DNA from: Flavobacteriales bacterium
Lineage (GTDB): Bacteria; Bacteroidota; Bacteroidia; Flavobacteriales_F; PHOS-HE28
Assembly: GCA_046306055.1 (NCBI GenBank)
Contig: JBKDXR010000039.1
Coordinates: forward strand, 65,039-129,038
Reading direction: 5' to 3'
DNA length: 64,000 nt
The notes under the pieces were generated by a model, which worked only from the letters and a program-made list of their open reading frames with translations, ran no database searches and was not told where the DNA came from. This document shows positions 10,363 through 55,176 of this stretch, piece after piece. The translations under genes were made by a program, and so were the position numbers. Position 1 is the stretch's first letter; every line of letters starts with the position of its first letter.

Positions 10363-13290
10363 ATGAAGGCCGATACACAGCACTTGTCGCGAATCCTGCA
10401 CCTGGCCATCCTGCTTTTCCTCTCTGCTGCCATGCAGGCACAGACGCAGCGGTTACGCGGCATGGTCACGGATGCCGTTACCGGCGAGACCCTGATCGGG
10501 GCGAACGTGGTGCTGAAGGGCACAACCACCGGCGCCGTGACCGACATCGATGGCAAGTTCGACATGACCGTGGAGACGGCACTGCCCTGCACGCTCACCG
10601 TGAGCTTCATCGGATATACCGCACAGGACGTGGTGGTGAAGACCACCGACCAACCCATCAAGGTGAAGCTGGGCACTGATCAGGTACTGCTGAAAGAGGC
10701 CGAGGTGGTGGGAAGCCGCATCACTGAAAAGCAGAAGCAGGCACCGCTCACCGTGGAAAGCATGGATGTGCTCGCCATTCGCGAGGCCCCGAGCGGCGAC
10801 TTCTACGAGAGCCTGGGCACATTGAAAGGTGTGGACATGACGGCTGCCAGCATGGGCTTCAAAGTGATCAACACCCGCGGCTTCAACAGCACCAGCCCGG
10901 TGCGCTCCCTGCAACTGATCGATGGGGTGGACAACCAGAGCCCCGGGCTCAATTTCTCGTTGGGCAACTTCCTTGGCGCCAGTGACCTGGACGTGATGAA
11001 AGTGGAGGTGATCGCCGGGGCCAGCACGGCCTACTTCGGCCCGGGTGCCTTCAACGGGGTGATCAACATGACCACCAAAAGCCCCTGGATGTTCCCCGGG
11101 CTCAGCATCAGTGCAAAGGCCGGCGAACGCAGCCTGTTGGAAGGCGCCGTGCGCTGGGCAGAGGTTTTCAAGGATAAGAACGGAAAGAACCGATTTGCCT
11201 ACAAGCTCAACCTGTTCGCCATGCAGGCCGAGGACTGGTATGCCGAGGACTACCGGGCAACGGTCAACTCGCCAACACCAGTGGGCAACCCTGGCCGCTA
11301 CGATGCGGTGAACATCTACGGGGACGAGAACACGACGGTGAACAACAACTACAGCCGCACGGCCGCCGAACGTCGCGACTACCATGGTCTCGGCATCTTC
11401 CTGCGCCCCGGCTATAAGGAGACCGACCTGGTGGATTACGGCACGAACAACCTTAAGGCCGGCCTTAGCCTGCACTATATGATCCGTGACAGCGTGGAAG
11501 CCATCCTGGCCAGCAACTACAGCACGGGCAGCACGGTATATCAAGGTGAGAACCGCTACCGCCTGCAGAACGTGCAGTTCTTCCAGCACCGCTTGGAATT
11601 CCGCAAGGAGGGTACCTGGTTCGTACGGGGTTATGTCACACATGAGGATGCCGGCCAGACCTACGACATTTTCACCACCGGCGTGCGCCTCCAGGAAGCA
11701 AGCGGTACAACGAAGGATTGGAACACGGCCTATTTCAATCTTTGGGACAGCTGGATCGGTTCGGCGTTGAACCCCGGACTGTTGAACGAGACGGTGCCTG
11801 GGTATTACACCCCATCCGAAGCACCGGCACAGGGCATCACCTCGGCAGAAGCCTATGATGCGTACATCACCCAGTTCGTGGCCGACAACCAGGACCTGTA
11901 CACCATGTACCACCAGATGGTGGCCGATTCGGTGAACCGCCTGAACAGCGCCCAGGTCCGCCTCACACCGGCCTATCTCGTGGGCACACAGCGTTTCGAC
12001 GATAAACTGGCCGAGATCACTGGCAAGCGTTTCACGGAGGGAGGCTCCCTGTTCTACGATCGAAGCATGCTGGCCCATGGCATGGGCGAATACCGCTTCA
12101 AGCCGGCCTTCGGCGAAGTGATCCTCGGTGGAAGTTACCGCCAATACCTGCCCAACAGCGCGGGCACCATTTTCCGCGATACGGGCAATGTGGTGATCCG
12201 CAACAGCGAATTCGGCGTGTATTCCGGTCTGGAGAAGAAATTCATGGAGAACAAGTTGAAGACCACGGTCACGATCCGGATGGACAAGAACCAGAACTTC
12301 AACGCCCTCTTCTCCCCTGCTGCCACGCTGGTATATACACCGAAGGAGGACCGCGTGTTCCGCGTTTCGTTCAGCAGTGCCATCCGCAATCCCACCCTGG
12401 CCGACCAGTACCTGTACTACAACGTGGGCCGGGCGATCCTGTTGGGTAACGTGGATGGCCAGTTCGAGGCCGGAAAGGACAGCCTGATCACCATTGAAAG
12501 CTTCAATGAATATCGTTCGACACCCTCCCTGCTGGAAGGCCTGTCGAAGCTGGAATACTTCAATGTGGACCGGATCCGTCCCGAACAGGTGAGGACCATT
12601 GAGGCCGGTTACCGTGGAACGCATTGGGAGAAATTCTACATCGACGCCAGCGCCTACAGCAGTTGGTATACCGACTTCATCGGATTCATTTTCGGGGTGA
12701 GCGCACGGTTCGATGATCCGTTGGCCCCAGGATTCCCTTCCGGTGGGATCCAAGCCTATCGCCTTTCGGCCAATGCCACCAGCATGGTACGGACCCAGGG
12801 GGCGAACCTCGGCGTGAGCTACTACCGCAAGAAAATGACCTACGGCGTGAACTACAGCTACAACAAGCTGGTGACCGGTGAGGACGACCCCATCATCCCC
12901 GCCTTCAATACGCCCGAGAACAAATTCAACTTGAGTTTCACCGGCCATGACCTGAAAGTGCCGTTCACAGGCAAACCCAACCTTGGGTTCGGCATCAATT
13001 GGAAATTCGTTCAGGGCTTCACGTTCACCGGCTCACCCCAGTTCACGGGCCCGATTCCGAGCTACGATATGGTGGACGCACAGGTGAACGTGCGTTTCCC
13101 CGTGCAGCATCTGACGGTTAAACTGGGGGCCAGCAACCTTTTGGGCCTGGTGCCCCTGTTCGACCCTGAAGTGCCCGGGGATGAGCGGTTGGACCGCATG
13201 GTGGACAACCGCGTCCTGATGGTGTTCGGCGGACCCTTTGTGGGCCGACTCGCCTACCTCCAATTGGTTTATGAACTGGACAAGCGCTGA
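10363..13290 (+). CDS. TonB-dependent outer-membrane receptor (CarbopepD_reg-like N-domain + plug + barrel)
   Basis: Signal peptide. GMVTDAVTGETLIGANVVLKGT...TDIDGKF (carboxypeptidase regulatory-like domain), a plug region and a C-terminal aromatic-rich barrel. The 1356-aa ORF in the track has a spurious 5' extension antisense to the RNase gene; start set at MKADTQ (ATG at 10363). Confidence 0.85.
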   Translation: MKADTQHLSRILHLAILLFLSAAMQAQTQRLRGMVTDAVTGETLIGANVVLKGTTTGAVTDIDGKFDMTVETALPCTLTVSFIGYTAQDVVVKTTDQPIKVKLGTDQVLLKEAEVVGSRITEKQKQAPLTVESMDVLAIREAPSGDFYESLGTLKGVDMTAASMGFKVINTRGFNSTSPVRSLQLIDGVDNQSPGLNFSLGNFLGASDLDVMKVEVIAGASTAYFGPGAFNGVINMTTKSPWMFPGLSISAKAGERSLLEGAVRWAEVFKDKNGKNRFAYKLNLFAMQAEDWYAEDYRATVNSPTPVGNPGRYDAVNIYGDENTTVNNNYSRTAAERRDYHGLGIFLRPGYKETDLVDYGTNNLKAGLSLHYMIRDSVEAILASNYSTGSTVYQGENRYRLQNVQFFQHRLEFRKEGTWFVRGYVTHEDAGQTYDIFTTGVRLQEASGTTKDWNTAYFNLWDSWIGSALNPGLLNETVPGYYTPSEAPAQGITSAEAYDAYITQFVADNQDLYTMYHQMVADSVNRLNSAQVRLTPAYLVGTQRFDDKLAEITGKRFTEGGSLFYDRSMLAHGMGEYRFKPAFGEVILGGSYRQYLPNSAGTIFRDTGNVVIRNSEFGVYSGLEKKFMENKLKTTVTIRMDKNQNFNALFSPAATLVYTPKEDRVFRVSFSSAIRNPTLADQYLYYNVGRAILLGNVDGQFEAGKDSLITIESFNEYRSTPSLLEGLSKLEYFNVDRIRPEQVRTIEAGYRGTHWEKFYIDASAYSSWYTDFIGFIFGVSARFDDPLAPGFPSGGIQAYRLSANATSMVRTQGANLGVSYYRKKMTYGVNYSYNKLVTGEDDPIIPAFNTPENKFNLSFTGHDLKVPFTGKPNLGFGINWKFVQGFTFTGSPQFTGPIPSYDMVDAQVNVRFPVQHLTVKLGASNLLGLVPLFDPEVPGDERLDRMVDNRVLMVFGGPFVGRLAYLQLVYELDKR

Positions 13291-13335
13291 TACGCCGATC
13301 CGCACCTACCTTTAGCCACACAAACGATCGACCAC

Positions 13336-15003
13336 ATGAACCGAACGCTACCCCTTGCCCTTGTAACCGCGGCACTTGGCCTGGCCACTGCGGCCAGCGC
13401 CCAGCAGCGATACATCAACGAGGTGTTCACGAACGCCCAGATCACCATCACCAACGATGTGACCTACGGCACCAACGTGAACTTCCTGACCTCGAACCTT
13501 TCCTCGCCCCTGGTGCCCACCGATCTGGTGGCGCTGCAGACCGCAGTGTCCTTGGGCCAGCCCATCCCCGCTGCCTACTTCAACCCAGCGGACCCCAGCA
13601 CGGCAGTGAAAGTGTTGGACATCAAGATGGATATCTACCAGCCTGACCAGGCCCTCGACGCTGTAACGGAACGTCCGCTGGTGATCTACGTGCACACCGG
13701 CAACGCCCTGCCCCCGCCCATCAATGGCAGCCCGAACGGGACCCGCAAGGACAGCAGTGCCGTGGAGATGTGCAAGCGCATGGCCCGCCGTGGCTATGTG
13801 GCCGTGAGCATGAGCTACCGCGGCGGCTGGAACCCTTTGGCAGCCACCGAACAGGAGCGTCGCGGGCAGTTGCTCAATGCCATCTACCGGGCCGTTCATG
13901 ATGTGCGCCAGTGCACCCGTACCCTGAAAGCCGATGCGAACACCTACCGGATCGATCCTGACAAGGTGATCGTGATCGGTGAGGGTACTGGCGGTTACAT
14001 ATCATTGGCCAACGCTACGTTGGACGAGGGCGCCGAACTTTTCATCGAGAAGTTCCGGCCTGATCCGTTCAATCCCAATGTGAGCTACGTGGACACGAAC
14101 CTGGTGGGTAACCTGGACGGTTTCAATGGCCAACTGACCTTGTATCGCCCTAATGGCCAGAACCACGACGCCCAGTTCTGCGTGAACATGGGTGGCGCCT
14201 TGGCCGATACCAGCTGGCTCGCTCCTGGCGATGCGCCGATGGTGGCCTTCCACACGGTGTTCGACCCCTTCGCTCCCTTCACCGAGGGGATCGTGATCGT
14301 GCCCACCACCGGCGGTCCTGTGGTTCCGGTGCAGGGTTCGAACCTGTTCATGCAATTGGTGAACACTTACGGCAACAACAGCAGCTTCGATAACCTGCCC
14401 AGCAACAACCCCTTCACCAACCGCGCACGTGCCCTCTACGGCACCACGCAGACGCACGCCGCCAACAGCGTGCTGATCAACACCGGTACAGAAGGCCTGT
14501 TCCCGATGGTCCGCCCATTGTGGCCAGCACCCGCCCAGGAAGAGGCCAGCCCCTGGCAGTGGTGGGACCCGAACAGCGCCATCGCCCAGACCGAAGTGGC
14601 CCCAGGCATCACTGCGCACATGGCCAGCTTGTCCAGCAACCCGGACATGAGCCCCACCAAGGGCCGCACCTACATCGACACCGTCATGGGCTACATGAAC
14701 CCGCGTATCGTGTGCGCCCTGCAACTGGGCCCCTGCTCTTTGGTGGGTATCGATGAGGCCAGTGCCATCGCCCAAGGTGTGGAGCTGTACCCCAACCCGG
14801 CCAGCGATCGCTTCACGGTGACCAGCGCCGAGGCCATCATCCAGCGTTACGAGATCTACGACATCAACGGCCGCCTGGTGCGTACCGCCAACGTGAACGG
14901 TCGCCAGGTCACTATCGAGCGTCAGGGCCTCACCGCCGGTGCCTACCATGTGAGCTTGCGCTTCGCGGAGGGTGCCGTGACCCGCAAGCTGATGCTTGAC
15001 TAA
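13336..15003 (+). CDS. T9SS (type A CTD) secreted protein, possible esterase/alpha-beta-hydrolase-like
   Basis: Signal peptide. Por secretion tail (LYPNPASDRFTVT...YHVSLRF). Central LVIYVHTGN / VIVIGEGTGG segments resemble hydrolase-fold motifs, but no clean GxSxG. Confidence 0.6.
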   Translation: MNRTLPLALVTAALGLATAASAQQRYINEVFTNAQITITNDVTYGTNVNFLTSNLSSPLVPTDLVALQTAVSLGQPIPAAYFNPADPSTAVKVLDIKMDIYQPDQALDAVTERPLVIYVHTGNALPPPINGSPNGTRKDSSAVEMCKRMARRGYVAVSMSYRGGWNPLAATEQERRGQLLNAIYRAVHDVRQCTRTLKADANTYRIDPDKVIVIGEGTGGYISLANATLDEGAELFIEKFRPDPFNPNVSYVDTNLVGNLDGFNGQLTLYRPNGQNHDAQFCVNMGGALADTSWLAPGDAPMVAFHTVFDPFAPFTEGIVIVPTTGGPVVPVQGSNLFMQLVNTYGNNSSFDNLPSNNPFTNRARALYGTTQTHAANSVLINTGTEGLFPMVRPLWPAPAQEEASPWQWWDPNSAIAQTEVAPGITAHMASLSSNPDMSPTKGRTYIDTVMGYMNPRIVCALQLGPCSLVGIDEASAIAQGVELYPNPASDRFTVTSAEAIIQRYEIYDINGRLVRTANVNGRQVTIERQGLTAGAYHVSLRFAEGAVTRKLMLD

Positions 15004-33083: not shown

Positions 33084-36000
33084 TCATTGCACCAAGGTGA
33101 CGTGCCCGACGAAGTCGCGGGCATCGCCATCCCTTTCCACGATCACCTTCCACACGTAGACGTCGATCACGGTCTCCTGGCCTCCCACCCGGCCATCCCA
33201 TTCCGCCTCGCGGTCGGTGGTCCGGTAGATCTCCTTGCCCCATCGATCGAAGATCAGCAACGTGTAGTTCCATGTACTGAAGCCGTTCAGCACCGGCCTG
33301 AACCCTTCATTGCGTCCATCGCCATTGGGACTGAACGCGTTGGGCACATACACCAACGGATCGGCCCGCACACCGATCAACTTGCAGGTGGTGTCCGGGC
33401 AACCAAGCTCGTTGATGGCCACCAGGCAAGTGGTGAACGGACCGCCATCGGCAGGATACAGGTGCAACGGATGCACGTCGGTACTGGTAGTGGCGTCGCC
33501 GAAGTCCCAGTTGTAGTTCACCGCGCCCTGGCTCTCGTTGTTGAACCGGACCGCATTTCGCACATTGGCCACGGTGTCGGTACTGAACGCTGCCGTTGGC
33601 GTCGGATGCACCAGTACTGCTCCGGGCACAACCAAGGTATCTGCACACCCGCCGGCCCCTGTGGCGATCAGGGTCACGCTGTATGAACCCTCGTTGGCGT
33701 AAGTGTGCTGGGGAGCATCGGCCTGGGATGAGCTGCCATCACCCAGGGTCCATTGATAGCTCTGTGCGTTCACCGAGGTATTGATGAACTGCAGCGGGTA
33801 TCGGGCGCATGCTGGCTGAGGTTGTAACGTGAAGGATGCATCGGGTGTAGGATGCACAATGAACTGCTGCGTGGCCACATGCTCACAACCATACTGGTTC
33901 GTAGACGTGAGCGAGACCGTATAGGTGCCCGGTCCATCGAACGTGATCGAAGGTTCGTTCAGCACCGACGTGTTCCCGTTACCCAGGTCCCACGCGTAAC
34001 CAATGGCCGACTGCGAATTATTGATGGTCTGCACGGTCACAGGTGAAGTACAGCTGGAATAGGCCGATAGCTCGAACGCACTGGTGGGCAAGGGGAATGC
34101 CACCACTGGCATGCTCAGAGTGTCGGTGCATCCATTGAGGTTCTCTGCAACGAGCGTTACCGAATAAGTGTCCGCAGTGGTGTATGTGTGCGTTGGCGTG
34201 GATGAGCCTGAGGTATTGCCGTCACCGAAGTCCCATTGATAGAAATCAGCGCCAGTGCTGCTGTTGGCGAAGTTGACCTCCAGATCAATGCACCCCGATC
34301 CGGGCTGTGGAGTGAATGAAGCCACGGGCGTTGTGCCGACAGTGACCTGTTGCACAAGCGTGGCCGTGCAACCATCGGGCGCTGAGGTGACGGTCAGCGA
34401 CACGGCATAAGTGCCTCCGGTGGCATAGGCATGCTCCGGTGCGGATAGTAGGGAACCGGTGCCATCGCCAAAGTCCCAGCTCACGCTGGCACTGTTCGGC
34501 GTGGTGTTCGTGAAGGTGAACGGCTCACCAGCGCATACCGTGCTTGGAGTGGTGGTAAAGCTGACCGCTGGTGAAGGCAATACAGTGACCGTGGTGGCAT
34601 ACTGATCGAACCCGCAACCGAAAGCGGACAGTTCGATGACGTAGGTGCCAGCGTTCACGAAGGTGTGCGAGGGTGCATCGGCAATGCTGAAGTTCCCATC
34701 ACCGAACGACCACAAGAGAGCGGTATCGCCGCTGCTATAGTTGGTCAGGTCCACTGTGAGCGGACCACAACCCACCACCGGGTCCGTATTGAAAAAGGCC
34801 GTTACCTCGTTAGGCACCACACCGATCACCTGTTGGGCCGTATCGCTTCCACACTGGTTGGCCACGACCAAGGTGATCGTGTAGTGGACCGTGGAATCCA
34901 CATCCACCAAATAGGCATGCGTCACAATGGGACCGGGATCGCTGCTCGTACCGCCATCGCCGAAATCCCACGTGAACGTGTCGGGCAAACCATAGCTCGC
35001 ATTCCCGAAAGGGACATCGCTATAGGCGCAATGCAGGTTCACGTTCGGCCCGAAGACCGCCGTGGGGGATGGGATGACAGTTACCGGGGCACTATCGCTG
35101 TCCGCCCCACAGGCGTTCGTGGCCGTGAGGGTCACGTTGTAAACGGCGGCCTGCTGTGGATCGGGTGGGAAGGTGAAACTGCCGGGCCACTGGTCGGTGC
35201 TACTTCCAAGGCCGCCGAAGTCCCACACATAGGTTAGGCCATCGCCTAACGAGGTATTGTCCGGATCTACGGTCAGGGGGCCGCATCCTTCATCGGTGCT
35301 GAGTGCCAATTGAGCTTCAGGCACATCCCAAACCTGTACCGTACTGTAAGTGGTATCGGAACAACCGGCTCCGGTAATGGCCACCAAGCGTACCGTGTAA
35401 ATTCCAGTTGTTGTGTAGGTGTGCTGTGGCGACATCGCGAACGATACACCTCCGTCGCCGAAGTCCCACTCCGCACTTGTGGCACCAATGCTGGCATTCG
35501 CGAAGCCAAAGGACACACCGGCGCAAGCCACCGGCCCATTCGTGAAGTCGGCCACTGGCAGGGGTTGAACGGTCACGGTGGCCCCGTCGCTATTGCTGCA
35601 ACCGCTGGCTGGATCGGTGTACAGATAGGTCACTGGGTTGCCGCCCGGTAAGGCCAGCAATGGATCGAACTCGCCGGTGATGGGGTCCACTCCCACCCCG
35701 CTCCATGTACCACCGGTTGGCGTAGCTGTCAGCACTTGCACACCACCATCGAGACAAACGGCGATATCGTTGCCGGCATCGACCACCGGCAGATCGTTCA
35801 CCACCACGTTCACCTGGTCCTGAAGCAAGCAGGTGCCCGTTCCAATGGAATAAGTCAACGTGTAGCTACCAGCGACCGATGTGGAGAGCACACCTGCAGG
35901 GCTCACCTGCGGACCGCTCCAGGTGCCGCCGACAGGCGTTGCATTCAATTGCAGCGGACCACTTCCCACGCACACAGCGGTATCGGCTCCCGCATTGGCC

Positions 36001-39000
36001 GGATCGATCACGGGCTGCACGTCCACCGTGGCCTGGTCGCTCGCTGTGCATCCATTGGCATCGACCAACGTGTAGGTGATCACATCAGAGCCCACACCGG
36101 AAGGCAACAGCTCATTGGATGCGTTGATGGTCATCCAACCCGCGCTCCACGTGCCTCCCGCAGGTGAACCGCTCAACGGGAAGGGTATCGGCTGATCGCA
36201 CAGGACCAGGTCCGGCCCTGCGTTCACTGTAGGAATGGCGTTCACCGTGGCATTCACGGTGGCGGTGGAAACGCACCCGTTCGCGTTCTGGTAGGTGTAG
36301 GTCAGCACTTGTGTTCCGGGAGAAACAGCGCCGGGATCAAAGCTCCAGGGCGGCCCTGAAACGCCATTGCCCGTCCAGCTACCTCCTGCGGGAGTACCTG
36401 TCAGCGCAACAGCGGCAGCATCGGCACAACGGCTGAAGGCAGGCATAACGTTGAGCAAGGTTGCGGGCACAACGCTCACTTGTACTTGATCGCTCGTAGC
36501 GCACGTGCCTGTGCCGTAGGCATAGGTCAGCGTGAAATTCCCGGTGGCACTGGGCGTGTACCAACCGCCGGCTGCGGCGCCGGTCCACGTTCCACCGGCC
36601 GGCGACGAACCTTGCAATTGCACGGGTGTGGTCCCCTGACACAAAGTGGTATCCGCACCTGCATTGGCGAACTGCGGAACATCCTGGACCGTTATCGGGA
36701 CCTGGGCCGTGCTCGTGCAGCCATTTGCATTCACGTAGGTATAGGTCAGTACGAACACCCCGAGCGAATCCGGTATCGGGGTGAAGACACCGCCAGCGGT
36801 CACCAAGGGACCGCTCCATGTACCTCCTGTCGGCGATGCGCCCGCCAACGTGACAGGTATGGCCTGGTCGCAAAAGGTCTGAGCGGTGCCTGCTGTGGTG
36901 GGTGTAGGCTGATACACGGTCATGGTCACCGTGGTATTTCCCGGACAGCCACCCACATCACCGGTCACGGTGTAGGTCGTGGTAACGGTCGGAGTCGCCG
37001 TAAAGGTCGGACCCGTACCCACCTGGGTTGATCCGATATACCATTGGTAATTACCCGCGCCGCTCGCCGTGAAGGTGGCACTGCCGCCGTTACACACGGC
37101 CGCGGTATTCGGCGTTACAGAGACCGTTGGTGCCGCAACCACCAGCACGTTCACGATGGTGGCCGGGCTCTGGCAACCATTGCTCACCGCCACCACGGTA
37201 TACTGACCGGCATTGGCAGCCGACGCGTTCGGAATGGTGAATGCCGCCTGGTTGGAGACCACGTTGCCTCCCGGACCGGTCCAGATGTAGCTCACTCCTG
37301 CCCCGCCGTTGGCCGTAAAGGAAATGGTCTGTCCGGCGCATACCGGACTGTTGCTCGATGCAGCAGGCGCAGCAGGTGCCGTGCCAATGGACAGGTTCGC
37401 GTTGGACGTGGCTTGTCCGCATGCATTCACCACAGTGAGGGATAGCGTGGGGTTTCCCGCATTCGCAAAACACACCTGACCCGGTGCCAGCGTGTTCGCG
37501 TTGGCAGGAGTTCCTCCCGGGAAGTTCCACGTGTAACTGGTGATCGGCGCGCCGCAATCCTGCACCGTGGCAGAGGGGTTCACACATTGCCCGGCACAGA
37601 TGCCGCTCAAGGCCGCGGTGCTCACCTGTGGCGGCGCGTTCACCACCACCTGCTGCGTGATCGGCGGTACGTTGCAGGTGTTCACTGCGCGGAACTGAAC
37701 GGTATACGTTCCGGGCTGATCGAACAGGAAGCTCGGCTGGAACGCCGTGGAAGAAATGCTCGTGGCCGTACCCGTGGCACAGGATGATGCAGTGCCGTTC
37801 ACGTTCCACTGCCAGGTGGTCTGGCAACTGTTCGGGCTGTTCGTCGAGTTGGTGGTGGTCACGTTCAGCGGAACACAACCGGTATTGGCGGAAAGCGTGA
37901 ACGCAGGCACCGGAGGTTCTTCCACACAAATGGTGCGCGACAGGGTATGAAGTCCGCAACTATTACCGGTAAGGTCGGTGATGGTGTAGGTGCCCGCCAC
38001 GGTGAACTGCAGGTTCAAGGTGGTACTACCATCGGTCCACAAGCCGGGGTTGGCCGGGTTGCCATTGTCGTTGCCCAAGGTGCCTGACGCAATGTTCCAT
38101 CCCGTGGATGGCGTGACGGACCAGATGTTGCGCGGAGCCGTGGCACAACCCGGTGCTGTAAGCCCGATGCTCTGGTCGGTGAAGCTCACCGTGGTGTTCA
38201 CACAAGCCGTATCGTTCGGCGCCAGGGTGAACTGTGCCTGCGGAGTTTCGCTCACCCGGATGGGGCCGATCTGCCCCTGCGTCTGGTCGCACGGGTTCTG
38301 TGCAGTGAATGTGACGTTGAGCTGCCCTCCAGCAAGGCCGCAGGTGGACGTGGTGTACGTGTGATTGACAACGGCAGGCGGCGGATGGGCCAGGGTCACG
38401 CTATTGCCATCGCCGAAGTTGATGATGTAGGTGGTGCCCGGCGAATTGCCCGCAACGGAATTGATGTAGAAGGGCAGCGTGCCACCCGTACAGATGTTCG
38501 TGTTCGGGTCCGTACTGATACCTCCGCCGGGGTTGGTACCAAGAAAGACCTGGTATTGCTGGCTGCGAATGCATCCGTTCGGGTAGGCGATGGTGTAGGT
38601 CATCGTCCAGAGCCCTTGCGCATAGTTGTGGCTCAAGCTCCATCCTTGCGAGGGGTTCTCGACCGGCGAGCCATCGCCCCAGTTGATGCTGCGCACCGCG
38701 CCCGGTACGTTGGCGCTCTGGTCAGTGAAGCTGAAGTTCCAAGAACCACTGGGATCGCAGATGCTGAACGTGGTGAGGTTGTTGAACGTGGTGATCTGCT
38801 CCGGACCGGTGGTGGTGAGCAAGGCCGGTGGCGCAGGGTTCACGTTGATCGTGATGCTGTCCGTGGCCGTGCAATTGTTGTCGTCGGTGACCGTGAGCGT
38901 GTACACGGTGGTCACCGTGGGTGATGCGCTCGGGTTGGCAACGTTGGGGTTGCTCAACCCTGTGGCGGGCGACCAGCTGTAACTGTAGGGCTGCTGTCCA

Positions 39001-39170
39001 TTATTGGCCGAACCGTTCAATTGCTGCGACGCACCCTCGCAAATGGTATACTGCGTTGGCCCCGCGTTCGCAGTGAAATTACAGGGCTGGGCATGTACGA
39101 CCTGCACCCAGAACAAGGGCACAAGCACGGCAAGCCAGCGTAGCGGACCGTTCATTTTTCGAGCACACAT
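33084..39170 (-). CDS. giant (~2030 aa) PKD-repeat surface protein with T9SS type B CTD
   Basis: Signal peptide. At least 10 PKD-like repeats carrying the WDFGDG signature, plus SprB/Ig-like Cys-containing repeats. C-terminal PNAFSPNGDGRNEGF...FDRWG...GHVTLVQ. Alternative starts at 39176 (GTG), 39170 or 39155 (ATG). Confidence 0.8.
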   Translation of the reverse strand: MCARKMNGPLRWLAVLVPLFWVQVVHAQPCNFTANAGPTQYTICEGASQQLNGSANNGQQPYSYSWSPATGLSNPNVANPSASPTVTTVYTLTVTDDNNCTATDSITINVNPAPPALLTTTGPEQITTFNNLTTFSICDPSGSWNFSFTDQSANVPGAVRSINWGDGSPVENPSQGWSLSHNYAQGLWTMTYTIAYPNGCIRSQQYQVFLGTNPGGGISTDPNTNICTGGTLPFYINSVAGNSPGTTYIINFGDGNSVTLAHPPPAVVNHTYTTSTCGLAGGQLNVTFTAQNPCDQTQGQIGPIRVSETPQAQFTLAPNDTACVNTTVSFTDQSIGLTAPGCATAPRNIWSVTPSTGWNIASGTLGNDNGNPANPGLWTDGSTTLNLQFTVAGTYTITDLTGNSCGLHTLSRTICVEEPPVPAFTLSANTGCVPLNVTTTNSTNSPNSCQTTWQWNVNGTASSCATGTATSISSTAFQPSFLFDQPGTYTVQFRAVNTCNVPPITQQVVVNAPPQVSTAALSGICAGQCVNPSATVQDCGAPITSYTWNFPGGTPANANTLAPGQVCFANAGNPTLSLTVVNACGQATSNANLSIGTAPAAPAASSNSPVCAGQTISFTANGGAGVSYIWTGPGGNVVSNQAAFTIPNASAANAGQYTVVAVSNGCQSPATIVNVLVVAAPTVSVTPNTAAVCNGGSATFTASGAGNYQWYIGSTQVGTGPTFTATPTVTTTYTVTGDVGGCPGNTTVTMTVYQPTPTTAGTAQTFCDQAIPVTLAGASPTGGTWSGPLVTAGGVFTPIPDSLGVFVLTYTYVNANGCTSTAQVPITVQDVPQFANAGADTTLCQGTTPVQLQGSSPAGGTWTGAAAGGWYTPSATGNFTLTYAYGTGTCATSDQVQVSVVPATLLNVMPAFSRCADAAAVALTGTPAGGSWTGNGVSGPPWSFDPGAVSPGTQVLTYTYQNANGCVSTATVNATVNAIPTVNAGPDLVLCDQPIPFPLSGSPAGGTWSAGWMTINASNELLPSGVGSDVITYTLVDANGCTASDQATVDVQPVIDPANAGADTAVCVGSGPLQLNATPVGGTWSGPQVSPAGVLSTSVAGSYTLTYSIGTGTCLLQDQVNVVVNDLPVVDAGNDIAVCLDGGVQVLTATPTGGTWSGVGVDPITGEFDPLLALPGGNPVTYLYTDPASGCSNSDGATVTVQPLPVADFTNGPVACAGVSFGFANASIGATSAEWDFGDGGVSFAMSPQHTYTTTGIYTVRLVAITGAGCSDTTYSTVQVWDVPEAQLALSTDEGCGPLTVDPDNTSLGDGLTYVWDFGGLGSSTDQWPGSFTFPPDPQQAAVYNVTLTATNACGADSDSAPVTVIPSPTAVFGPNVNLHCAYSDVPFGNASYGLPDTFTWDFGDGGTSSDPGPIVTHAYLVDVDSTVHYTITLVVANQCGSDTAQQVIGVVPNEVTAFFNTDPVVGCGPLTVDLTNYSSGDTALLWSFGDGNFSIADAPSHTFVNAGTYVIELSAFGCGFDQYATTVTVLPSPAVSFTTTPSTVCAGEPFTFTNTTPNSASVSWDFGDGTGSLLSAPEHAYATGGTYAVSLTVTSAPDGCTATLVQQVTVGTTPVASFTPQPGSGCIDLEVNFANSSTGADFYQWDFGDGNTSGSSTPTHTYTTADTYSVTLVAENLNGCTDTLSMPVVAFPLPTSAFELSAYSSCTSPVTVQTINNSQSAIGYAWDLGNGNTSVLNEPSITFDGPGTYTVSLTSTNQYGCEHVATQQFIVHPTPDASFTLQPQPACARYPLQFINTSVNAQSYQWTLGDGSSSQADAPQHTYANEGSYSVTLIATGAGGCADTLVVPGAVLVHPTPTAAFSTDTVANVRNAVRFNNESQGAVNYNWDFGDATTSTDVHPLHLYPADGGPFTTCLVAINELGCPDTTCKLIGVRADPLVYVPNAFSPNGDGRNEGFRPVLNGFSTWNYTLLIFDRWGKEIYRTTDREAEWDGRVGGQETVIDVYVWKVIVERDGDARDFVGHVTLVQ

Positions 39171-39303
39171 TAGCACCTACGAAGGTACCCGGACCTGTAG
39201 ACGCGTGCAGCGTCAAGACCACTGGTTATCAACGGCATCGTGTGATCAAGACGTTCGTTTGTGACGAACAGTTGCCCTTTGCGCCGATCAGCAGTTCCAG
39301 CGA

Positions 39304-47119: not shown

Positions 47120-50100
47120 TCATACCCGCCGATAGCCCTTCTCCACCTTCTTCGCACGCACCTTTTCCATCTCTCGGCGCGCCGAGGTCTCGTCGACGAA
47201 TTGCTTGGTGAGCGATTGACCGGCTGTTCCGATCCGACCGTAGCGTACGATGTAGGATGCGCCTTCCACCCTCACCTCCCAGAACTTGCTGCTTCCATCC
47301 TCCACGCATTCGTAGCGCTCGAAGGCTCTGTCGCTCTCTGTGACCAGAGGCTCGGGCATGGGTTCAACAGAAGCCGTTGAAGGCTTCGGGGCTGTTGGTG
47401 TTAGAGCGCCCGGCACTTGCTCAACACCAGGTCCAGGCGCCACGACCACCTCAGGCGCGACCTCCTCCACGCCAGCAAGTACACGATCCAAGCGCCCCAT
47501 CACCTGTTCCGGATCATTGAACCAATCCTTGGCGAGGATAGTGATCACCTGCCAACCGAAGGCGCGCAGCAAGGCCGGGCGCTGGCAGTACTGCTCCAAT
47601 ACATTGTCGTTGCGGTAGTGCACATCGGAATCGATGAGGATGCCGAGGCGGTAGCCCTTGCCATCGGTAGCACGTACGGCCAGGTCGCACCGGAAATAAG
47701 AACTGCCCACGTTGCGATCCACCTGTAGGCCTTGGGCCTGGAGCCGTTCCTCGATCCGCGTGGTCACTGAGGATACCTGATCGCTGCTGTGCTCTGCGCC
47801 ACGCAGGGATAGCCCATCAAGCACAGTGGCCGCGCCATCCTGCTCACCCGCCGATAAGCGCTCGGCATATTGCAGGAACCGCCGCAGGTAATTGGCCCCC
47901 TCGTTGTGCTCGTTCTTGATATCGTTGGCGGTGATGCTGCTCACCACGGCCATGTGTCGCTTGGCCCGCGAGAAGATCACATTCAGGCGCTTCTCCCCGC
48001 CCCTACGATTGATCGGCCCGAAGTTCATGAGCATCCGGCCGTTCGCATTGGGCGCATAGCATACGCTCATGATGATCACATCGCGTTCATCGCCCTGCAC
48101 GTTCTCCAGGTTCTTGATGAAAAGCCCCACGAACTGATCGTCCTCCACGCGCTGGTACTCCTCTTCCAACCTGGCCTCGAACGCCTTGTCGGCGGCCGCC
48201 AGTTCCTGCAACGCCTCTTCGATGGCCGATTGCTGCTCGATGGAGAAGGCCACCACCCCGATGCTGCGACCCTGGCCGATGAGCTGTTGAATGAGCAGGG
48301 CGATGTAGCGTGCTTCCTGGTCATTGCGTCGCTCGTGGTACACGCCGTTCCGCAGGTGGTGGAAACTGATGGGGCGGTCGGACAATGCGTTAACATGCCG
48401 TACCGCATCCGCTGGATCCACAACGCTGATGGGAGCTTGTTGGGCCTGCAGCAGTTGCTGGTCCGGGATGGTGAGCAGTCCGCGCCCGTAGAACGCCGCG
48501 TTGCTGAAGCTGATGAGGCTTTCATGACGACTGCGGTAGTGCCAGCCCAGCATCACGCCCCGCAACTTGCGAACGCCCTGGCTCAGCAGACTGTCCGCAT
48601 CCAAGGCAATGCCGATTCGTTCCTCGGTGGCCTCCTCTTCCTCGTCCACATCGCCGCTGGTGGTGTTGAAGAAATTAGTGGGCGGCATCTGCATCTCATC
48701 GCCCACGATGATGGTCTGCGCGGTGCGGAACAAGGCGGGCACTCCTTCCTCCAAGGTGATCTGGCTGGCCTCGTCGTAGATCACCACATCGAAGAGCTTG
48801 GTGTCCAGCGGCAGGATGTCCGATACGCTTTGCGGGCTCATCAGCCATACGGGTTTCAGGCCCATCACCACCGGACCGCTCTCTTTACCGATCAGCTCTC
48901 GTACGCTCTTGTAGCGCATCGACTTGCCGAACTCGTTCTCCAGGATGCGCCGACCTGCGGTCCACTCCTTCTTGATGGACCGCTCCTCTGGTCCCATGCC
49001 CGTGACACTCGTATCCGATATCCGTACATGGTGCTTGAAACGGGCCCGTACCGTTGAACGGATCAGGTCCGCGTTCACATCGAGGTAGCGCTTCTCCAGG
49101 GCATTGAGCTGCTTCACGCTTTGGAGAATGGACAGCCCGTCCAGGCGATCGAACAGCCGGTCGGTACGGTACACCTCGTGCAATGACCTGTAGGCCGTGA
49201 GGTAAGCCATGGCATCGGCACTGATGCGCTGCCTGGTGATGAAAGCGCGCAGGCGTGGCTCCAACGCCGCGATCTCGCGCACATAGGGAACCAGGCCACT
49301 GAACCCGTTCAGCGCTTTTCTCGCAGCCACCATCCATTGCTCAACGCCATTCAGCGGAAGCTCTTCGCAGAAGGTGTTCAGGGTGCGCGCCTGCTCGGTA
49401 AAGCGATCGAGGTCGGCACCGAGCTCCACCAGCTCAGCGATCTCCGAAGGCGGCATGGCGAGCAGGGCGTTCCACTTGGCATCGCGCTGGCGATCACGCA
49501 GGGCGCGCACCAGTTCACGGCTCAGCGTATTGTCCTCCAGGCCGTAACGATCCTGCATGCCTTGCTCCAGGTCAGCAAGTTTCTCCGACGCTTCATGATC
49601 CGCACAGAGGTCGTCCAGCAAGCGCGCTATCTCAGGGGCCACCTGGTGTTTACCGAGATCATAGCTTCTCGCGACCATCGCCTTGATGCGCCGATAGGTG
49701 CCGTTCAGGAACTTGAAGAAACCCTTGTTCACGCGCTGCCATTGCTCGCGTGCTGCCTGCGCATCCGCAGCGTTGGGCCTCTGCTTCCAGTGCACCGTGG
49801 CCTTGGCGGCTTTCGCCAACGCCTTCCTCTGGCGCTCGATGGAATCCACATCCGTATCGTAGCGGCGCGCATCCTCATGACCGTTCTCGAAAATGCCGAG
49901 CCTGTCCCGCGCGGCCACCGGCCTCAATTGGCGCGCACCACCCACCAGCATCATCAGCTCGCCCAATGTGGGGCTCAAGCCATCCGGCAGGTCGATGGTA
50001 TCCAATTGTTCGTTGATGCGCTCCCACACCTGTTCGGCTTTCCCCAACGCATCAGCGATGCGTCCAAGGGGCTGCTCGTCGTGCAGCAATTGCGCCTGCA

Positions 50101-52546
50101 CCGCGATCAACGGATGCTCTGCCGGAACGGGGGCATGACCGAGCTCTTTCAATGCCACGGCCAGCTCGTGTACCAGCCGTTCCACCGACAGCCATGCGGC
50201 GTGGTCCGGTATGCGCTCCAAGGCAAGCGCATCCACTTGGTGCAGGCTCTCGTCGCGCTGCGCGATCAAGCGGTCCAACAGGGTATGCAAGGGGATCCCT
50301 GTGGACGCATGGGCCTCACGCATGCGCTGGTGGAAATGCTCCAACCGTCCGATCTCCTCCTCCATCCTGCCTAACACGGCGGCCCGTTCGCGCGCGATGG
50401 AAGCCTCGTCCATGGTGCTCTTCAGGAAGGCATCGTAGGTCTGCTTCAGGTCCTGGATGAAAGCCTTCTTATCGGCCTGCGAGTCGTGTACGCGGCAGCA
50501 GACCTCATCGAGCTCACGTTGCTTCAGGCGATGGAAGACCACGTCGAGCGCTGCGCGTTTCTCGCAGACGAAGAGCACCTTCTTACCAGCACCGACATAA
50601 TAGGCGATGAGGTTGGTGATGGTCTGAGACTTGCCTGTGCCCGGAGGCCCTTGGATGATGTAGCTACCACCGCTCGCCGCCTGTTCGATGGCGCGGGTCT
50701 GTGTGGGATCGGCCTGGATGATAGGGAACCGATCGGCAAGCGGGGCACGCACCGGAGCGGCATCCTGCAACGGTCTTGGTTGATCGCTGAAGAGCATGCT
50801 GAACACGTCATCCTTGGCGTTCGCCTCGATGATGTGGTCGTAATCGCGCACAAGGGACATGCGCCGTGCATTGAAGTTGCCCAGCGTAACGTTGCAGAGG
50901 TCCACCTCCCAATGGTAGGGGTTGGTATCGCCCTCTTCCACCGTGTTGTAAAAGCTGCGACCGCCGTTGCCCTTGGCATGATCGACACCGGGTCGGAGGT
51001 CTTCGTTGATGATGTACTCGAAGGTGCTCGCGGCCGGACGCACCTTGCGCTGGTAGAGCTGAAGGCCCAGCGGCGTGAAGCCTTCCGTGCCGTAAGAATA
51101 GCTGAAGCTGCGCGTATCGCGGCCACTGGCGTGCCGACGCGTGCGACGCAGGATGCGCGAGAACGCCTGCCGTGCAGCGGCATGCACCACTTCGATGCGG
51201 GGCTTGTCCACCAGGTCAAGTTCGATCTCCGACCCGCTGCTCTTGGATTGCTGGCCTATGCTGCTTACCAGGTCCTCCACACTGGACTCCTCCAGATCGA
51301 TGGAGTCAGGCAATTGTATCCCGTACAACTCGCGGAAATAATGGACGAGCACAGGGTTCACCTCGGCCTCTGCGGTGCGGCATTCCAGTACGTACTGGTC
51401 CTTCACGCCCTTGCGCTTGACCAGTTCCACGGGCAGCAGGATTAGCGGCGTATTGATCTTCTCGTTGCCGTAGTCCTTGAAGTTGGTCCACCGCAGGAAG
51501 GCGATCACCAGCCGTAAGGGATCCACGCCGTATTCGTTCACCGCTTTGCGCGCCTCGCTGCGCACTTTGTCCAAGCGTGCGGGCAAGGTGGGGCGCTCCT
51601 TCATGTCGAGGTAGCTGGTAAGCACCAAGCGCTTCTTGCCGATCACTTTGTCCCGCACGGAACCGCTCCATGTGATCAGTGAAGCAGGGTCGATGTTCTT
51701 GTGGTCCAGCAAGGGCGGTACGCTGGCTACGGTGAGGTTCACAAAGCCCTCGGTATCGCGGAAGTAGAGCAGCCTGTTGCGACGGCTCAGATCGAAGAGG
51801 CGCGCCTTGAGCTTGGCAAGGATCCAGTTGTCGCGCGAGCTCAGGTCCTGCTGGCGGAACCCGGAAGTGCGCGTGAGGTCCACATAGTTGTCCGGGTCGT
51901 ACTGCCTGAAGTTCTTCAGCTTGGCGATGACCTCATCGAGGCTGCGCGGACGGTCCTCGCGATAGAGCTGCGTACATTCCGTGATCACGCTCACCAGTGT
52001 GGGGTGCACCTGTTCGTTCAGGGCGAAGAGGTTATCACGACGCTCCACGAAGGCCTCAAGGTCCTCGGGATCGTTGAAGTCCAGACCGAACGCGAGGCTG
52101 GCAAGGATGAGCCCGCAGATATGGATGTCGGTGATGGGGTCGTGATGGCCGATCTCCAGTTCCCAAGCAGCGTAGCCCAGCAGGTATTTCGGGGCGCTCA
52201 GCGTCTCCCCTTCCTGACGGATCAGCGCATTTCGGTAAGCATGATGATCATCGTCCAATTCGGTCACTTCGCGCGTCACCACCACCGGACCTTCCTGCCT
52301 GGGCTTCGTGAACAGAAAGCGCGTGTGGGATATAGGGCCGCTGGTGCGTCCCAGGTCCAGGTACAATCGCCCTTCTTCCACACGTACGGCATCCGCATTG
52401 CGCAAACGGGCCACACGCCCTTCCATGTGTACACCGTGCAATGCTTCCAGCAAGGGCATGACCACGGCGATCACGTCATCGGTGCGCAGGCCGCCCTGTT
52501 CATCGCAATACCGCAGGAACCCTCGGAAATCCAGCCCTTCGTTCAT
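47120..52546 (-). CDS. 1808-aa multidomain protein: kinase-like N-terminus + DUF4011-like + SF1 (Upf1-like) helicase with large insertion + Vsr/DUF559-like endonuclease + Pro-rich linker + WGR domain
   Basis: Walker A [13 protein letters not shown] (aa 631-643). Walker B [9 protein letters not shown] (aa 1254-1262). Motif III [11 protein letters not shown]. Motif V [14 protein letters not shown]. Motif VI [16 protein letters not shown]. DUF4011-like [11 protein letters not shown]...[10 protein letters not shown] (aa ~230-560). Endonuclease-like YFRCDLAV...[13 protein letters not shown]...[12 protein letters not shown] (aa ~1590-1695). WGR signature [41 protein letters not shown]...KKVEKGY at the extreme C-terminus. 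Confidence 0.85.
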   Translation of the reverse strand: [1808 protein letters not shown]

Positions 52547-52549
52547 CGC

Positions 52550-53794
52550 TTATTCCTCTTGCAGGCTTTCCTCACCAACGTCCTTCATCTTCGACAACCC
52601 TTCCAGCGCACGCTCCTTGAGCTGCTTGAGCTCGCGGGCACCCAGCTTCAGCTCCTTGCGCAGGATGGCATCGAACTCCGCCGACAGATCCAACAGCTCC
52701 GCCAGTTCCAACATGTGGCCCAAAGGCACTTCCTCCTGTTCGCTGTCGCAACGGGCCACATCAAGCAGCACATAACTCAGGTAGTTGCGTGTGTCCTTGG
52801 CGGCGCTCTTCACCTGCTCGCGCAAGGCATCGGTCACATAGGTATCCGGGCTGCGCTTCATCTCGGGGAAATAGGACCGGCACAAAGCGGCCACCGCCGT
52901 ACTGAATATCCATCCGGGCTTCACGGCCAACAACAACAGTTCCTGCGTGAGGCGATGCAGCTCCTTCTGCCGGAACAGGTCCAGGTTGTTGATGTCAAGC
53001 GGGCCGCGTATGAGGCGCTCGATGCGCTCGGTGGAGGCCGAAGGATCATTGTGCCAATGGTGCAGTGCCAGGCAGCGCAGGTAATTCTCCGGATGCGTGG
53101 CGGCCTCACTGCCTTCATTCGCGGCGTTCACCACTTCCTCGGCCTGCTGCACGTAGCTGGCGGTGTTCACCTGGGCCAGGCCCGTGTGCAACTTGATCAA
53201 ACAACTGAGCACGGCCTCCGCATCCTGCGCAGCGAGCATGGCCCCGCGGTCGCAGAACAGCTCCATGTAAAGGCTGTAGAGGCGCGCGGTCTCCACGTGC
53301 ACATCCTCGCTACGTTCATCGTTGGCAATGGCATACACCACACGCGCGGTAACCTCGTGCTCGCCTCCATCCAATACATAGAACAGGTAGTGCGCCAGCT
53401 CGTGGCCCAGTAGCGCGAGGAGCTCCTTCTCGGTCAGCAATTCCATCAGCCGGCCGCTGAGCACAATGTGCGCCTCCTTGCCGAGGATGGAGATACCTGC
53501 GTTCAGATGCGTCGTGTTCTGCTCCTGGTACAGCGTCACCACGGCATCGATGTTCAGTGCCTTCACCGCTTGTTCGGCCGATCTGTAGGCACCGGCGTAG
53601 GTCGTCGCGTCCAGCCGATAGGTGTTCTTGAGCAGGGCCGTGCGGTGTGCCTTGGCCTGCTCCTCCTTCACCTGTTGCCCGCTGAACCACTTCCACGTGC
53701 GCTCGCGCTGCTTGAAGTGATCACGCAGTTGGGCGTGGAAGGGGAATGGCACGAGGGCGACCCCGTTGGAAAGGGATGATGCGGATGCTTCCAT
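52550..53794 (-). CDS. HExxH zinc-metallopeptidase-like protein (M48-like signature HELAH ... THPENYLR), C-terminal coiled-coil
   Basis: GHELAHYLFY at aa 130-139 and THPENYLR at aa 233-240 resemble the M48 HExxH and distal Glu elements. No TM segment or signal peptide. Its stop lies 3 nt before the start codon of the 1808-aa gene. Confidence 0.55.
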   Translation of the reverse strand: MEASASSLSNGVALVPFPFHAQLRDHFKQRERTWKWFSGQQVKEEQAKAHRTALLKNTYRLDATTYAGAYRSAEQAVKALNIDAVVTLYQEQNTTHLNAGISILGKEAHIVLSGRLMELLTEKELLALLGHELAHYLFYVLDGGEHEVTARVVYAIANDERSEDVHVETARLYSLYMELFCDRGAMLAAQDAEAVLSCLIKLHTGLAQVNTASYVQQAEEVVNAANEGSEAATHPENYLRCLALHHWHNDPSASTERIERLIRGPLDINNLDLFRQKELHRLTQELLLLAVKPGWIFSTAVAALCRSYFPEMKRSPDTYVTDALREQVKSAAKDTRNYLSYVLLDVARCDSEQEEVPLGHMLELAELLDLSAEFDAILRKELKLGARELKQLKERALEGLSKMKDVGEESLQEE

Positions 53795-54009: not shown

Positions 54010-55176
54010 ATGCGCCACATCGACCGCGAACTCGCTCCTGTGCTACTGAAAGCATCGCGTGGCTTCCCTGCTGTGGTGCTCACAGGACCACGGCGGGCGG
54101 GAAAGACCGTGCTATTGCGCAAGCTGTTCCCGAAGGCTTCGTACACCCTGTTGGAGGACCCCGATGTGATCGCGCGGCTTCGGGCCGACCCTCAAGGATT
54201 TCTCGATGGATTGGCCCTGCCTGCGATCCTGGACGAGGTGCAGAACGTGCCGGAGCTACTCTCCTACATCCGCTCGCGGATCGATGCGAAGCCGCGACGG
54301 ACCGGCCAGTGGTTCATCACCGGCTCGCAGGAAGCGCCCTTGATGCGCGGTGTTACGGAAAGCATGGCGGGACGGGCGGCCATCCTGCATCTGTATCCCT
54401 TGTCCACCACGGAATCAGCGAAGGTGGACCTGCTGCACGGCGGCTATCCGGAAGCCGTGGCGCGGCCGAAGAGCTCAGCGCTCTGGTTCAGCTCCTACGT
54501 GCAGACCTACCTGGAGCGCGATGTGCGCGCTGTGACCAACGTGCGCGACTTGGCGACCTTCCGTCGCCTCATGGCGCTGCTGGCCACACGGCACGGTCAG
54601 ATCCTGAACCGCAGCGAATTCGCCGGCCCCTTGGGCGTGAGCGTACCCACGATCAACCAATGGCTTGGCGTGTTGGAGACCACCCAGCAGCTCATCATCG
54701 TACCGCCGTTCTACGACAACCTGGGGAAGCGCCTCACCAAGTCGCCGAAGATCTACTTCACCGACAGCGGGCTGGCCTGCCATCTGTTGGGCATCACCAG
54801 CAAGAGCGAACTGGAACGGTCACCCTTTCTGGGTGCCTTGTTCGAGGGCTTTGTGGCGGCTGAGATCGTGAAGCGGCAGGTGAACGCCGGAGAGCGCCGG
54901 GAACTGTATCACTTCCGCGACGAACAAGGGCTGGAGGTGGACTTCCTGGTACCCGGTCGCAACGGTGCGCTCACCTTGATCGAGTGCAAGGCCACGCGCT
55001 CTCCCTTCCCGGCCATGGCCGGGAACCTGATCAAACTGAAGGCCAACCTCGCCAAGAAACAAAAGACGCGCACGAAAGTGGATGCCGTTCTCGTTCACCG
55101 CAAAGGGACCAAGGACACTTCCCGTGCTCTACTACCGGAGGTTACGGCCCTATCGCTGGAGCGTTGGCTGGGCTGA
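54010..55176 (+). CDS. AAA+ ATPase with DUF4143 C-terminal domain (AAA_14 family ATP-binding protein)
   Basis: Walker A VLTGPRRAGKT. Overall pattern of the widespread archaeal-ATPase-like/DUF4143 family. Confidence 0.8.
   Translation: MRHIDRELAPVLLKASRGFPAVVLTGPRRAGKTVLLRKLFPKASYTLLEDPDVIARLRADPQGFLDGLALPAILDEVQNVPELLSYIRSRIDAKPRRTGQWFITGSQEAPLMRGVTESMAGRAAILHLYPLSTTESAKVDLLHGGYPEAVARPKSSALWFSSYVQTYLERDVRAVTNVRDLATFRRLMALLATRHGQILNRSEFAGPLGVSVPTINQWLGVLETTQQLIIVPPFYDNLGKRLTKSPKIYFTDSGLACHLLGITSKSELERSPFLGALFEGFVAAEIVKRQVNAGERRELYHFRDEQGLEVDFLVPGRNGALTLIECKATRSPFPAMAGNLIKLKANLAKKQKTRTKVDAVLVHRKGTKDTSRALLPEVTALSLERWLG

Follow-up and report, generated by a model that had tools for sequence, protein, structure and literature searches.

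The stretch analysed here (the window) comprises 64,000 nucleotides of contig JBKDXR010000039.1 (positions 65,039 to 129,038, forward strand) in the assembly GCA_046306055.1 of a Flavobacteriales bacterium. On its reverse strand lies a two-gene unit, in which a gene for an M48-type zinc metalloprotease is followed by a very large gene whose product contains DUF4011, a superfamily 1 (SF1) helicase core, a Vsr-like nuclease domain and a C-terminal WGR domain. No Pfam-A domain is matched by residues 1–248 of this 1808-residue protein. The subject of this report is the first part of that region, residues 1–215, which predicted structure and sequence comparison identify as the C-terminal lobe (C-lobe) of a protein kinase, standing by itself, with no N-terminal lobe (N-lobe) and with its catalytic residues replaced. 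A first-pass annotation, made from the DNA letters alone, had proposed a degenerate kinase-like region at 51904–52546, which corresponds to residues 1–214; sequence, profile and fold evidence now agree on a degenerate kinase-like domain, consisting of a C-lobe, N-terminal to DUF4011.

The AlphaFold2 (AF2) model of the N-terminal region, calculated from an alignment of 39 sequences, has a predicted local distance difference test value (pLDDT) of 91.2 and a predicted template modelling score (pTM) of 0.87; a model built from a two-sequence alignment (pLDDT 53.8) was discarded. Helices 7–16 and 22–41 occupy the αD and αE positions and are followed by two short strands (54–57 and 60–63), a long loop that contains a hairpin (92–106), a short helix (128–131) and four further helices (137–153, 160–168, 182–191 and 203–211). 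The order of elements in the model is that of a kinase C-lobe, from the αD and αE positions through to the last helix of the lobe. When the model was compared with the PDB by Foldseek, the best 50 matches were all protein kinases (E-values from 4e-4 to 2e-3, probability 1.00, TM-score about 0.5 on the query), among them AMPK, PknB, RET, PknG and PKR. In BFVD, the matches were viral kinases wherever they carried a name. The modelled fold confirms residues 1–215 as a protein-kinase C-lobe without an N-lobe, with the C-lobe fold of the kinase superfamily, in which helices E, F, G, H and I are arranged around a buried helix F, and the likeness to the kinase fold that had been expected of a structure prediction of the N-terminus is present.

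The sequence comparisons point in the same direction. A phmmer search of PDB sequences with residues 1–230 matched the kinase domain of PpkA (E 0.0021), with residues 28–68 lying over the segment from the catalytic loop through DFG and residues 130–212 over PpkA 215–297 in the C-lobe. Within the first of these segments, residues 45–54 align with LHRDISLDNI and LDLG aligns with LDFG. This alignment reproduces the motif-to-subdomain assignment of the first-pass annotation, and the degenerate kinase-like motifs are found at the places it had quoted (residues 45–54, LDLG at 63–66, 140–166 and 180–207). A Ser/Thr-kinase profile of PHROG was matched by the window sequence alone (E 7.8e-6). An hhalign comparison of the family profile with PknB, PKA and CDK2 gave a score of 46.9 over residues 123–210 (P 2.9e-6, probability 88%), while 20 column-shuffled controls scored no more than 21.9 and the reversed alignment 14.2. 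The profile of 39 sequences gave 47 weak matches among PDB sequences, about 40 of them kinases and all at subdomains IX–XI; the best E-value was 0.074, so that none is individually significant and the result is informative through the enrichment of kinases and their common register. Among the Pfam families, Pkinase was the sole one matched by more than one of the 39 members (7/39, weakly, best E 0.064), and residues 1–250 gave weak matches in NCBIfam to kinases only (MAD6 and PknB-PASTA). The Pfam gathering threshold for Pkinase (PF00069) was reached neither by the window protein nor by the 39 relatives.

The absence of a Pfam-A match in the window protein, the position of the seven Pkinase matches far below threshold and the profile-to-PDB E-values, each above 0.07, might be taken to mean that the resemblance is due to chance, or that the segment is an ordinary N-terminal extension of DUF4011. 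This explanation is barely tenable. Independent methods give one register, the fold search returns only kinases and the shuffled controls fail; the AF2 model, the Foldseek result and the PHROG match all contradict it. The first-pass annotation had also raised the question of whether the segment is canonical DUF4011. That possibility was ruled out, since the Pfam model of DUF4011 covers residues 249–402 and the segment has no detectable counterpart in the NCBIfam profiles of the related proteins Hhe (NF042953; judged by profile coordinates) and ProA (NF058533).

Kinase sequences at the loci themselves were also considered. No kinase gene was found by phmmer in the fetched loci until a broken one turned up at locus L088, in a metagenome-assembled genome (MAG) of Lentisphaerales, where an ordinary membrane-anchored PknB-like kinase gene lies downstream of the two-gene unit (12988–13797, plus strand), broken into three open reading frames (ORFs). 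This frameshifted kinase aligns with the domain in the same register as PpkA (E 1.4e-4). A 146-residue Pkinase match at this locus was rejected as a related C-lobe protein, since it is a piece of the ordinary frameshifted kinase. The helicase gene of this MAG is likewise split in two, and both breaks most likely reflect assembly quality or pseudogenes and not biology.

The distribution of conserved residues, calculated over 195 relatives, separates the scaffold of the lobe from its catalytic apparatus. Scaffold residues are kept: His40 of helix E is present in 95% of the relatives, Glu129 (the APE Glu) in 85% with Asp in a further 13%, Asp140 and Gly145 of subdomain IX in 94% and 99%, and Arg199 of subdomain XI in 100%. 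In the window protein, A46-R47-L48 stands in place of H-R-D, A53 stands in place of the catalytic-loop Asn, and L63-D64-L65-G66 is found at DFG. Across the relatives, positions 46, 47 and 48 are Ala in 79%, Pro in 60% and Leu, Phe or Ile in 94%, respectively, and position 53 is variable. The Asp at the DFG position (D64) occurs in 41%, LDLG being peculiar to the window protein and its close relatives. Since conservation does not extend to the catalytic Asp, to the Asn of the catalytic loop or to the Asp of DFG, phosphotransfer is excluded on sequence grounds and the domain cannot be a kinase.

The N-lobe is missing altogether. None of the 194 full-length relatives has a Gly-rich loop, a VAIK Lys or a helix-C Glu; in all 194 the domain starts at the N-terminus of the protein, with an offset of −25 to +26 residues. 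An N-lobe hidden upstream was ruled out in the window by the stop codon of the M48 gene. Since this upstream gene, on the same strand, ends 3 nucleotides before the helicase ATG, an N-terminal extension cannot be concealed there. The first-pass annotation had seen neither a Gly-rich loop nor an N-lobe here, and the domain does begin at residue 1, as it does, to within about 25 residues, in the 194 relatives. The features of the unit are collected in Table 1.

Table 1. Positions in the window of the two-gene unit and of the segments of the giant helicase-nuclease (residue numbers are those of the encoded protein).
Feature	Coordinates	Strand	Basis
Whole gene, 1808-residue kinase-C-lobe / DUF4011 / SF1 (Upf1-like) helicase / Vsr-like nuclease / WGR protein	47120..52546	-	ORF list, translation, Pfam
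Non-catalytic protein-kinase C-lobe domain, residues 1-215	51902..52546	-	AF2, Foldseek, PpkA, PHROG, hhalign
Helix at αE position, degenerate catalytic loop and DFG-position LDLG, residues 22-66	52349..52483	-	PpkA alignment, column statistics, AF2
Variable insert at activation-segment position, residues 65-118, with predicted β-hairpin 92-106	52193..52354	-	Divergence, AF2 (pLDDT 75-94)
Conserved C-lobe core, residues 119-215	51902..52192	-	hhalign vs PknB 180-273; AMPK subdomains IX-XI; conservation
Linker to DUF4011, residues 216-248	51803..51901	-	pLDDT ~55; conservation mask
DUF4011, residues 249-402	51341..51802	-	Pfam PF13195, E 6.3e-18
SF1 helicase core (AAA_11 / AAA_12), residues 613-1537	47936..50710	-	Pfam
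MTES_1575 (Vsr-like restriction-endonuclease fold), residues 1597-1688	47483..47758	-	Pfam PF18741, E 2.1e-15
WGR domain, residues 1748-1807	47126..47305	-	Pfam PF05406, E 7.3e-15
M48-type zinc metalloprotease partner gene, 414 residues, cytoplasmic	52550..53794	-	Pfam Peptidase_M48, SprT-like

The domain belongs to a large family of uniform architecture. When 1.84 billion representatives were searched exhaustively with phmmer, 268 relatives (clusters at 50% identity) were recovered, 225 of them with E < 1e-10; nearly all matches lie at the N-terminus of proteins of 1600–1900 residues. Among the shorter matches, 54/58 run on into DUF4011 and are thus fragments of the same type of protein. All of the 117 proteins that were retrieved by the helicase part alone carry the C-lobe domain. 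The domain is a constant N-terminal module of one clade of proteins of about 1800 residues that combine DUF4011, an SF1 helicase, a Vsr-like nuclease and WGR. A word-index homology search with residues 1–240 returned a single relative (P0001, 268 residues), a frameshifted MAG gene; it appears to stand alone because the homologous giant gene of its locus (L001 / L022, Planctomycetia MAG CALOEH010000157.1) is called as about eight fragments. When species-representative genomes were scanned with one strict peptide pattern, derived from an alignment of seven sequences, at least 195 species-level genomes were found to encode a relative, including members of the Flavobacteriales, Chitinophagales, Sphingobacteriales, Planctomycetota, Verrucomicrobiota and Deltaproteobacteria. 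The clade occurs in Bacteroidota, Planctomycetota, Verrucomicrobiota and Proteobacteria, and the loci closest to the window are 84–91% identical to it. The fusion, which the first-pass annotation had called unusual, is so in that it is annotated in neither Pfam nor NCBIfam; within this widespread clade it is the rule (268 clusters; 194/194 full-length relatives).

In the remainder of the protein, a 24-residue helicase motif and GGEKRLNV are conserved at 90% or more among 71 sequences. Walker A is separated from Walker B by an insert some 500 residues long (residues 701–1190, window 48977–50444, minus strand), which is poorly conserved (mean distance 0.71) and to which Pfam assigns no domain.

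In the C-lobe core of the kinase-like domain, residues 119–215, the mean pairwise distance is 0.46, similar to that of DUF4011 (0.44) and WGR (0.47), which indicates that the domain is under selection. The motifs of the core begin with P119-x-Y121...G124-Y125-x-x-W128-E129, a P+1-like segment that ends in the APE Glu, and continue with G133-H134-H135-D136 and with D140 and G145 of helix F. Further along are a helix at the αG position with F166 and R170, the pair H181-P182, R196-x-x-R199 and the last helix (203–211). Several of the conserved residues are specific to the family, namely G133-H134-H135-D136, F166, R170, H181-P182, T192, R196 and R214; conservation reaches 95% for H134, 76% for H135, 96% for D136, 98% for F166, 96% for R170, 98% for P182 and 94% for R196. 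His134-His135-Asp136, together with Glu129 and Asp140, could be pictured as forming, on the kinase scaffold, a novel site for metal binding or catalysis, and a conservation of 76–96% for polar residues is above the usual need of a binding surface. Such a cryptic enzyme is nevertheless very improbable, because His135 occupies the position of a structural Tyr in many kinases and is Tyr in 15% of the relatives, and because the roles that Glu129 and Asp140 play in kinases are well known and structural. In addition, there is no nucleotide-binding lobe, and neither Pfam nor Foldseek reveals similarity to a hydrolase family.

The second gene of the unit encodes the protease. It matches Pfam Peptidase_M48 with 38.2 bits, against a cut-off of 20.3, and also matches SprT-like. 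In 118 relatives of the protease, H131-E132-x-x-H135, E178, D182, H234 and P235 never vary and E236 is kept in 99%, and the enzyme is predicted from these residues to be catalytically intact. The M48 gene lies directly upstream of the helicase gene, on the same strand, in 72 of the 80 loci with enough upstream sequence; in the remaining 8/80 it is displaced or partly aligned (4 loci) or there is no adjacent M48 gene (4 loci). Look-ups that started from the protease recovered the pairing in 3/3 cases, and the protease was seen only beside the helicase of this clade in all contexts examined. The pairing is also found in Nonlabens, in a gammaproteobacterium and in a deltaproteobacterial MAG, as well as on megaplasmids of Ralstonia solanacearum, where the two genes are annotated as 'M48 family metalloprotease' and 'WGR domain-containing protein'; altogether it was seen in four phyla. 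At the junction of the two genes in the window (52544–52552, minus strand), the TAA stop codon of the M48 gene, one codon (gcg) and the helicase ATG lie in one frame, so that the two proteins would be joined into one if the stop were read through. This arrangement is not conserved, the genes overlapping by 4 nucleotides in Ralstonia. A 570-residue ORF that runs antisense over the junction (51701–53413, plus strand) was judged to be an artefact of high G+C content (about 60%) inside two conserved genes.

Apart from the protease, no neighbour is conserved across phyla among the loci compared, and the surrounding genes are mostly housekeeping genes, syntenic within Flavobacterium. A uvrA-like gene adjoins the unit in Ralstonia (L085, 13657–16606) and at four Planctomycetota loci (L048, L052, L062 and L076), genes for an Lhr helicase and an ATP-dependent ligase are found near it in Nonlabens (L002), and an AlkZ-like gene is present at L003; these neighbours are a weak hint of a DNA-repair setting. 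In the window, a divergent gene for an ATPase with AAA_14 and DUF4143 (54010–55176, plus strand) matches the PADLOC defence candidate PDC-S01 (E 4e-100); no other gene near the unit there is defence-like. Elsewhere in the window, a gene at 33084–39176 (minus strand) encodes a 2030-residue protein that combines nine PKD repeats with a CHU_C sorting signal for type IX secretion, and there are genes for Por_Secre_tail and Omp28 proteins, in keeping with an origin from Bacteroidota.

No other part of the protein diverges as much as the segment at the position of the activation loop, residues 65–118 (mean pairwise distance 0.75), which contains indels and low-complexity expansions in the relatives. 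Variability of this kind would be expected of a recognition surface under diversifying pressure, such as that of an anti-phage decoy or sensor, in which the dead C-lobe would mimic a kinase or a kinase substrate site and a phage protein that binds or modifies it would switch on the helicase-nuclease. The relation of the rest of the protein to the anti-phage models Hhe and ProA and to the PADLOC candidate PDC-S37 agrees with such a role, as does the PDC-S01-like ATPase gene that adjoins the unit in the window. The scores, however, fall far short of the cut-offs that NCBIfam sets for equivalogs (710 against 1500 and 471 against 2000), and the neighbourhoods are those of housekeeping genes and not of defence islands. 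A collection of 50,697 phage records contains no copy, the Ralstonia megaplasmids are the only plasmids with copies, and the conserved partner is a protease, which the single-gene Hhe does not need. A role as decoy or sensor is accordingly rated as possible but doubtful.

The linker that joins the domain to DUF4011 (residues 216–248) has conserved D223-L224 and G229-F230, following Y213-R214, despite its low pLDDT of about 55. These conserved residues within a low-confidence segment suggest that the linker may contain a short linear motif or a cleavage site. The C-lobe could be an autoinhibitory cap, with the M48 protease cutting either the linker or the variable insert and thereby releasing an active helicase-nuclease. 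Obligate pairing with a catalytically intact protease would suit such a mechanism, as would a linker that is probably flexible and carries conserved residues. On the other hand, four loci keep the C-lobe domain with no adjacent protease gene, and the mirror-tree comparison described below gives no specific co-variation between the N-terminus and the protease; the cap is therefore an unlikely explanation, more so than the decoy or sensor.

The dead C-lobe is probably a non-enzymatic N-terminal module that binds a protein or peptide ligand and in this way controls or directs the helicase-nuclease, the partner of the M48 protease. The proposal is drawn by analogy with kinase C-lobes and with the KIND domain. 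The ligand would be bound on the former substrate-docking face of a kinase C-lobe whose ATP-binding N-lobe and catalytic residues were lost, or were never present; binding would then regulate the helicase-nuclease or direct it to its target. Candidate ligands are the partner protease, a substrate of the protease, or another protein, for example a foreign one. Several points weigh against this proposal. The strong polar conservation of H134, H135, D136, R170 and R196 could be the sign of an active site or a metal site instead of a face for binding. The putative contacts between His40 and Asp140 and between Glu129 and Arg199 are read from the alignment register. The PknB, PKA and CDK2 sequences used in hhalign did not come from a database, even though the register is backed by database sequences (PpkA, the PDB profile comparison and L088). 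Finally, a crude mirror-tree test of the N-terminal domain against M48, with the divergence of the helicase core removed, gave a partial r of −0.06, compared with values of up to 0.34 for other segments; the domain and the protease thus showed no additional co-variation.

A bolder form of the ligand-binding proposal, offered tentatively, is that the unit is a bacterial counterpart of the KIND principle, with the C-lobe as the protein-recognition head of a machine composed of protease, helicase and nuclease. The C-lobe would hold a protein substrate or the M48 protease itself, and the unit would find a protein that is stuck on, or associated with, nucleic acid. The target could be a DNA-protein crosslink, a roadblock or a phage protein; WGR and the helicase would engage the nucleic acid, and both the protein and the nucleic acid would be degraded. 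If this is true, the unit would represent a new, phylogenetically wide two-gene system of genome surveillance. Its presence in Ralstonia solanacearum and in Flavobacterium species provides hosts in which the proposals are testable, and gene deletions are expected to be feasible in both.

Irrespective of its role, the domain accounts for about 215 residues of a large and widespread bacterial family that had no assignment in Pfam-A (2025 copy) or in NCBIfam (2026). The assignment of this previously unannotated domain is solid, and the conserved partnership with a protease is intriguing. The literature searched contained no description of the C-lobe domain or of the two-gene unit, and no paper on ProA.

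Among known systems, the domain has close relatives in the eukaryotic-like Ser/Thr kinases, such as PknB, PpkA and the phage kinases. They share with it the C-lobe fold, the helix-E His, the APE Glu, the Asp-x-x-x-x-Gly sequence and the Arg of subdomain XI. Described pseudokinases normally retain both lobes. In contrast to the Ser/Thr kinases and their pseudokinase derivatives, the domain here has no N-lobe and no catalytic Asp, Asn or DFG Asp, and a variable insert with a hairpin, about 55 residues long, takes the place of the activation segment. The domain is homologous to protein kinases, yet it lacks three of their defining features, namely the N-lobe, the catalytic residues and a score above the Pfam threshold.

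The protein as a whole resembles Hhe and ProA, in which DUF4011 is likewise followed by an SF1 helicase that has a long insert and then by a Vsr/MTES_1575 nuclease. It scores 471.5 bits against the NCBIfam Hhe model, whose equivalog cut-off is 2000 (PADLOC Hhe, E 2.2e-98), and 710.2 bits against 'anti-phage protein ProA', whose cut-off is 1500. The protein is related to Hhe and ProA without being an equivalog of either. PDC-S37 of PADLOC, an untested candidate family with no curated cut-off, is matched with E 3e-214 over residues 530–1694 only (profile 202–1342 of 1550). Residues 320–421 align with positions 126–232 of the Hhe profile and 454–555 of the ProA profile. By these coordinates, the start of Hhe is displaced by about 195 residues, so that Hhe has no kinase-like domain; the N-terminus of the ProA profile is longer, but shows no detectable similarity to residues 1–250 (no match with E up to 10). 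The clade described here further differs from both in its C-terminal WGR domain and its obligate M48 partner. Together with the C-lobe domain, these two features set the clade apart from Hhe and ProA and point to a separate function, possibly a housekeeping one in nucleic-acid surveillance or repair.

The partner itself resembles M48 proteases of the HtpX/Ste24/BepA type in its invariant HExxH, its downstream Glu-x-x-x-Asp, its HPE and a score above the Pfam gathering threshold. It differs from them in being soluble, with about 410 residues and a conserved helical C-terminal half. No solved close relative of the partner was found, and it matched no NCBIfam equivalog and no PHROG or PADLOC entry.

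The closest parallel to the domain as a module comes from animals. KIND is a kinase C-lobe that stands by itself, lacks both the N-lobe and the catalytic residues, and is located N-terminally in large multidomain proteins (PMC3415841, PMC11231147). In Spir, KIND is a protein-binding module whose ligand is the FSI peptide of formin (PMC3415841, PMC11231147), and it is without helix G (PMC3415841). Residues 1–215 likewise form an N-terminal, non-catalytic module that consists of a C-lobe. Several differences separate the two. The AF2 model of the bacterial domain has a helix at the αG position (residues 160–168), which is absent in Spir KIND. KIND has been described from holozoan eukaryotes only, and its partner domains are concerned with actin or are phosphatases, as opposed to the helicase-nuclease of the bacterial protein. 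The Pfam KIND family gave no match in the 39 members with E up to 10, a search in which HMMER filters may hide very weak matches, and the top 50 Foldseek matches in the PDB did not include Spir KIND. Residues 1–215 are most simply explained as an independent truncation of a bacterial Ser/Thr kinase, and the animal KIND domain is their closest analogue by convergence and not by membership. A kinase C-lobe can thus become a free-standing, non-catalytic module in bacteria, as has so far been documented for KIND in animals.

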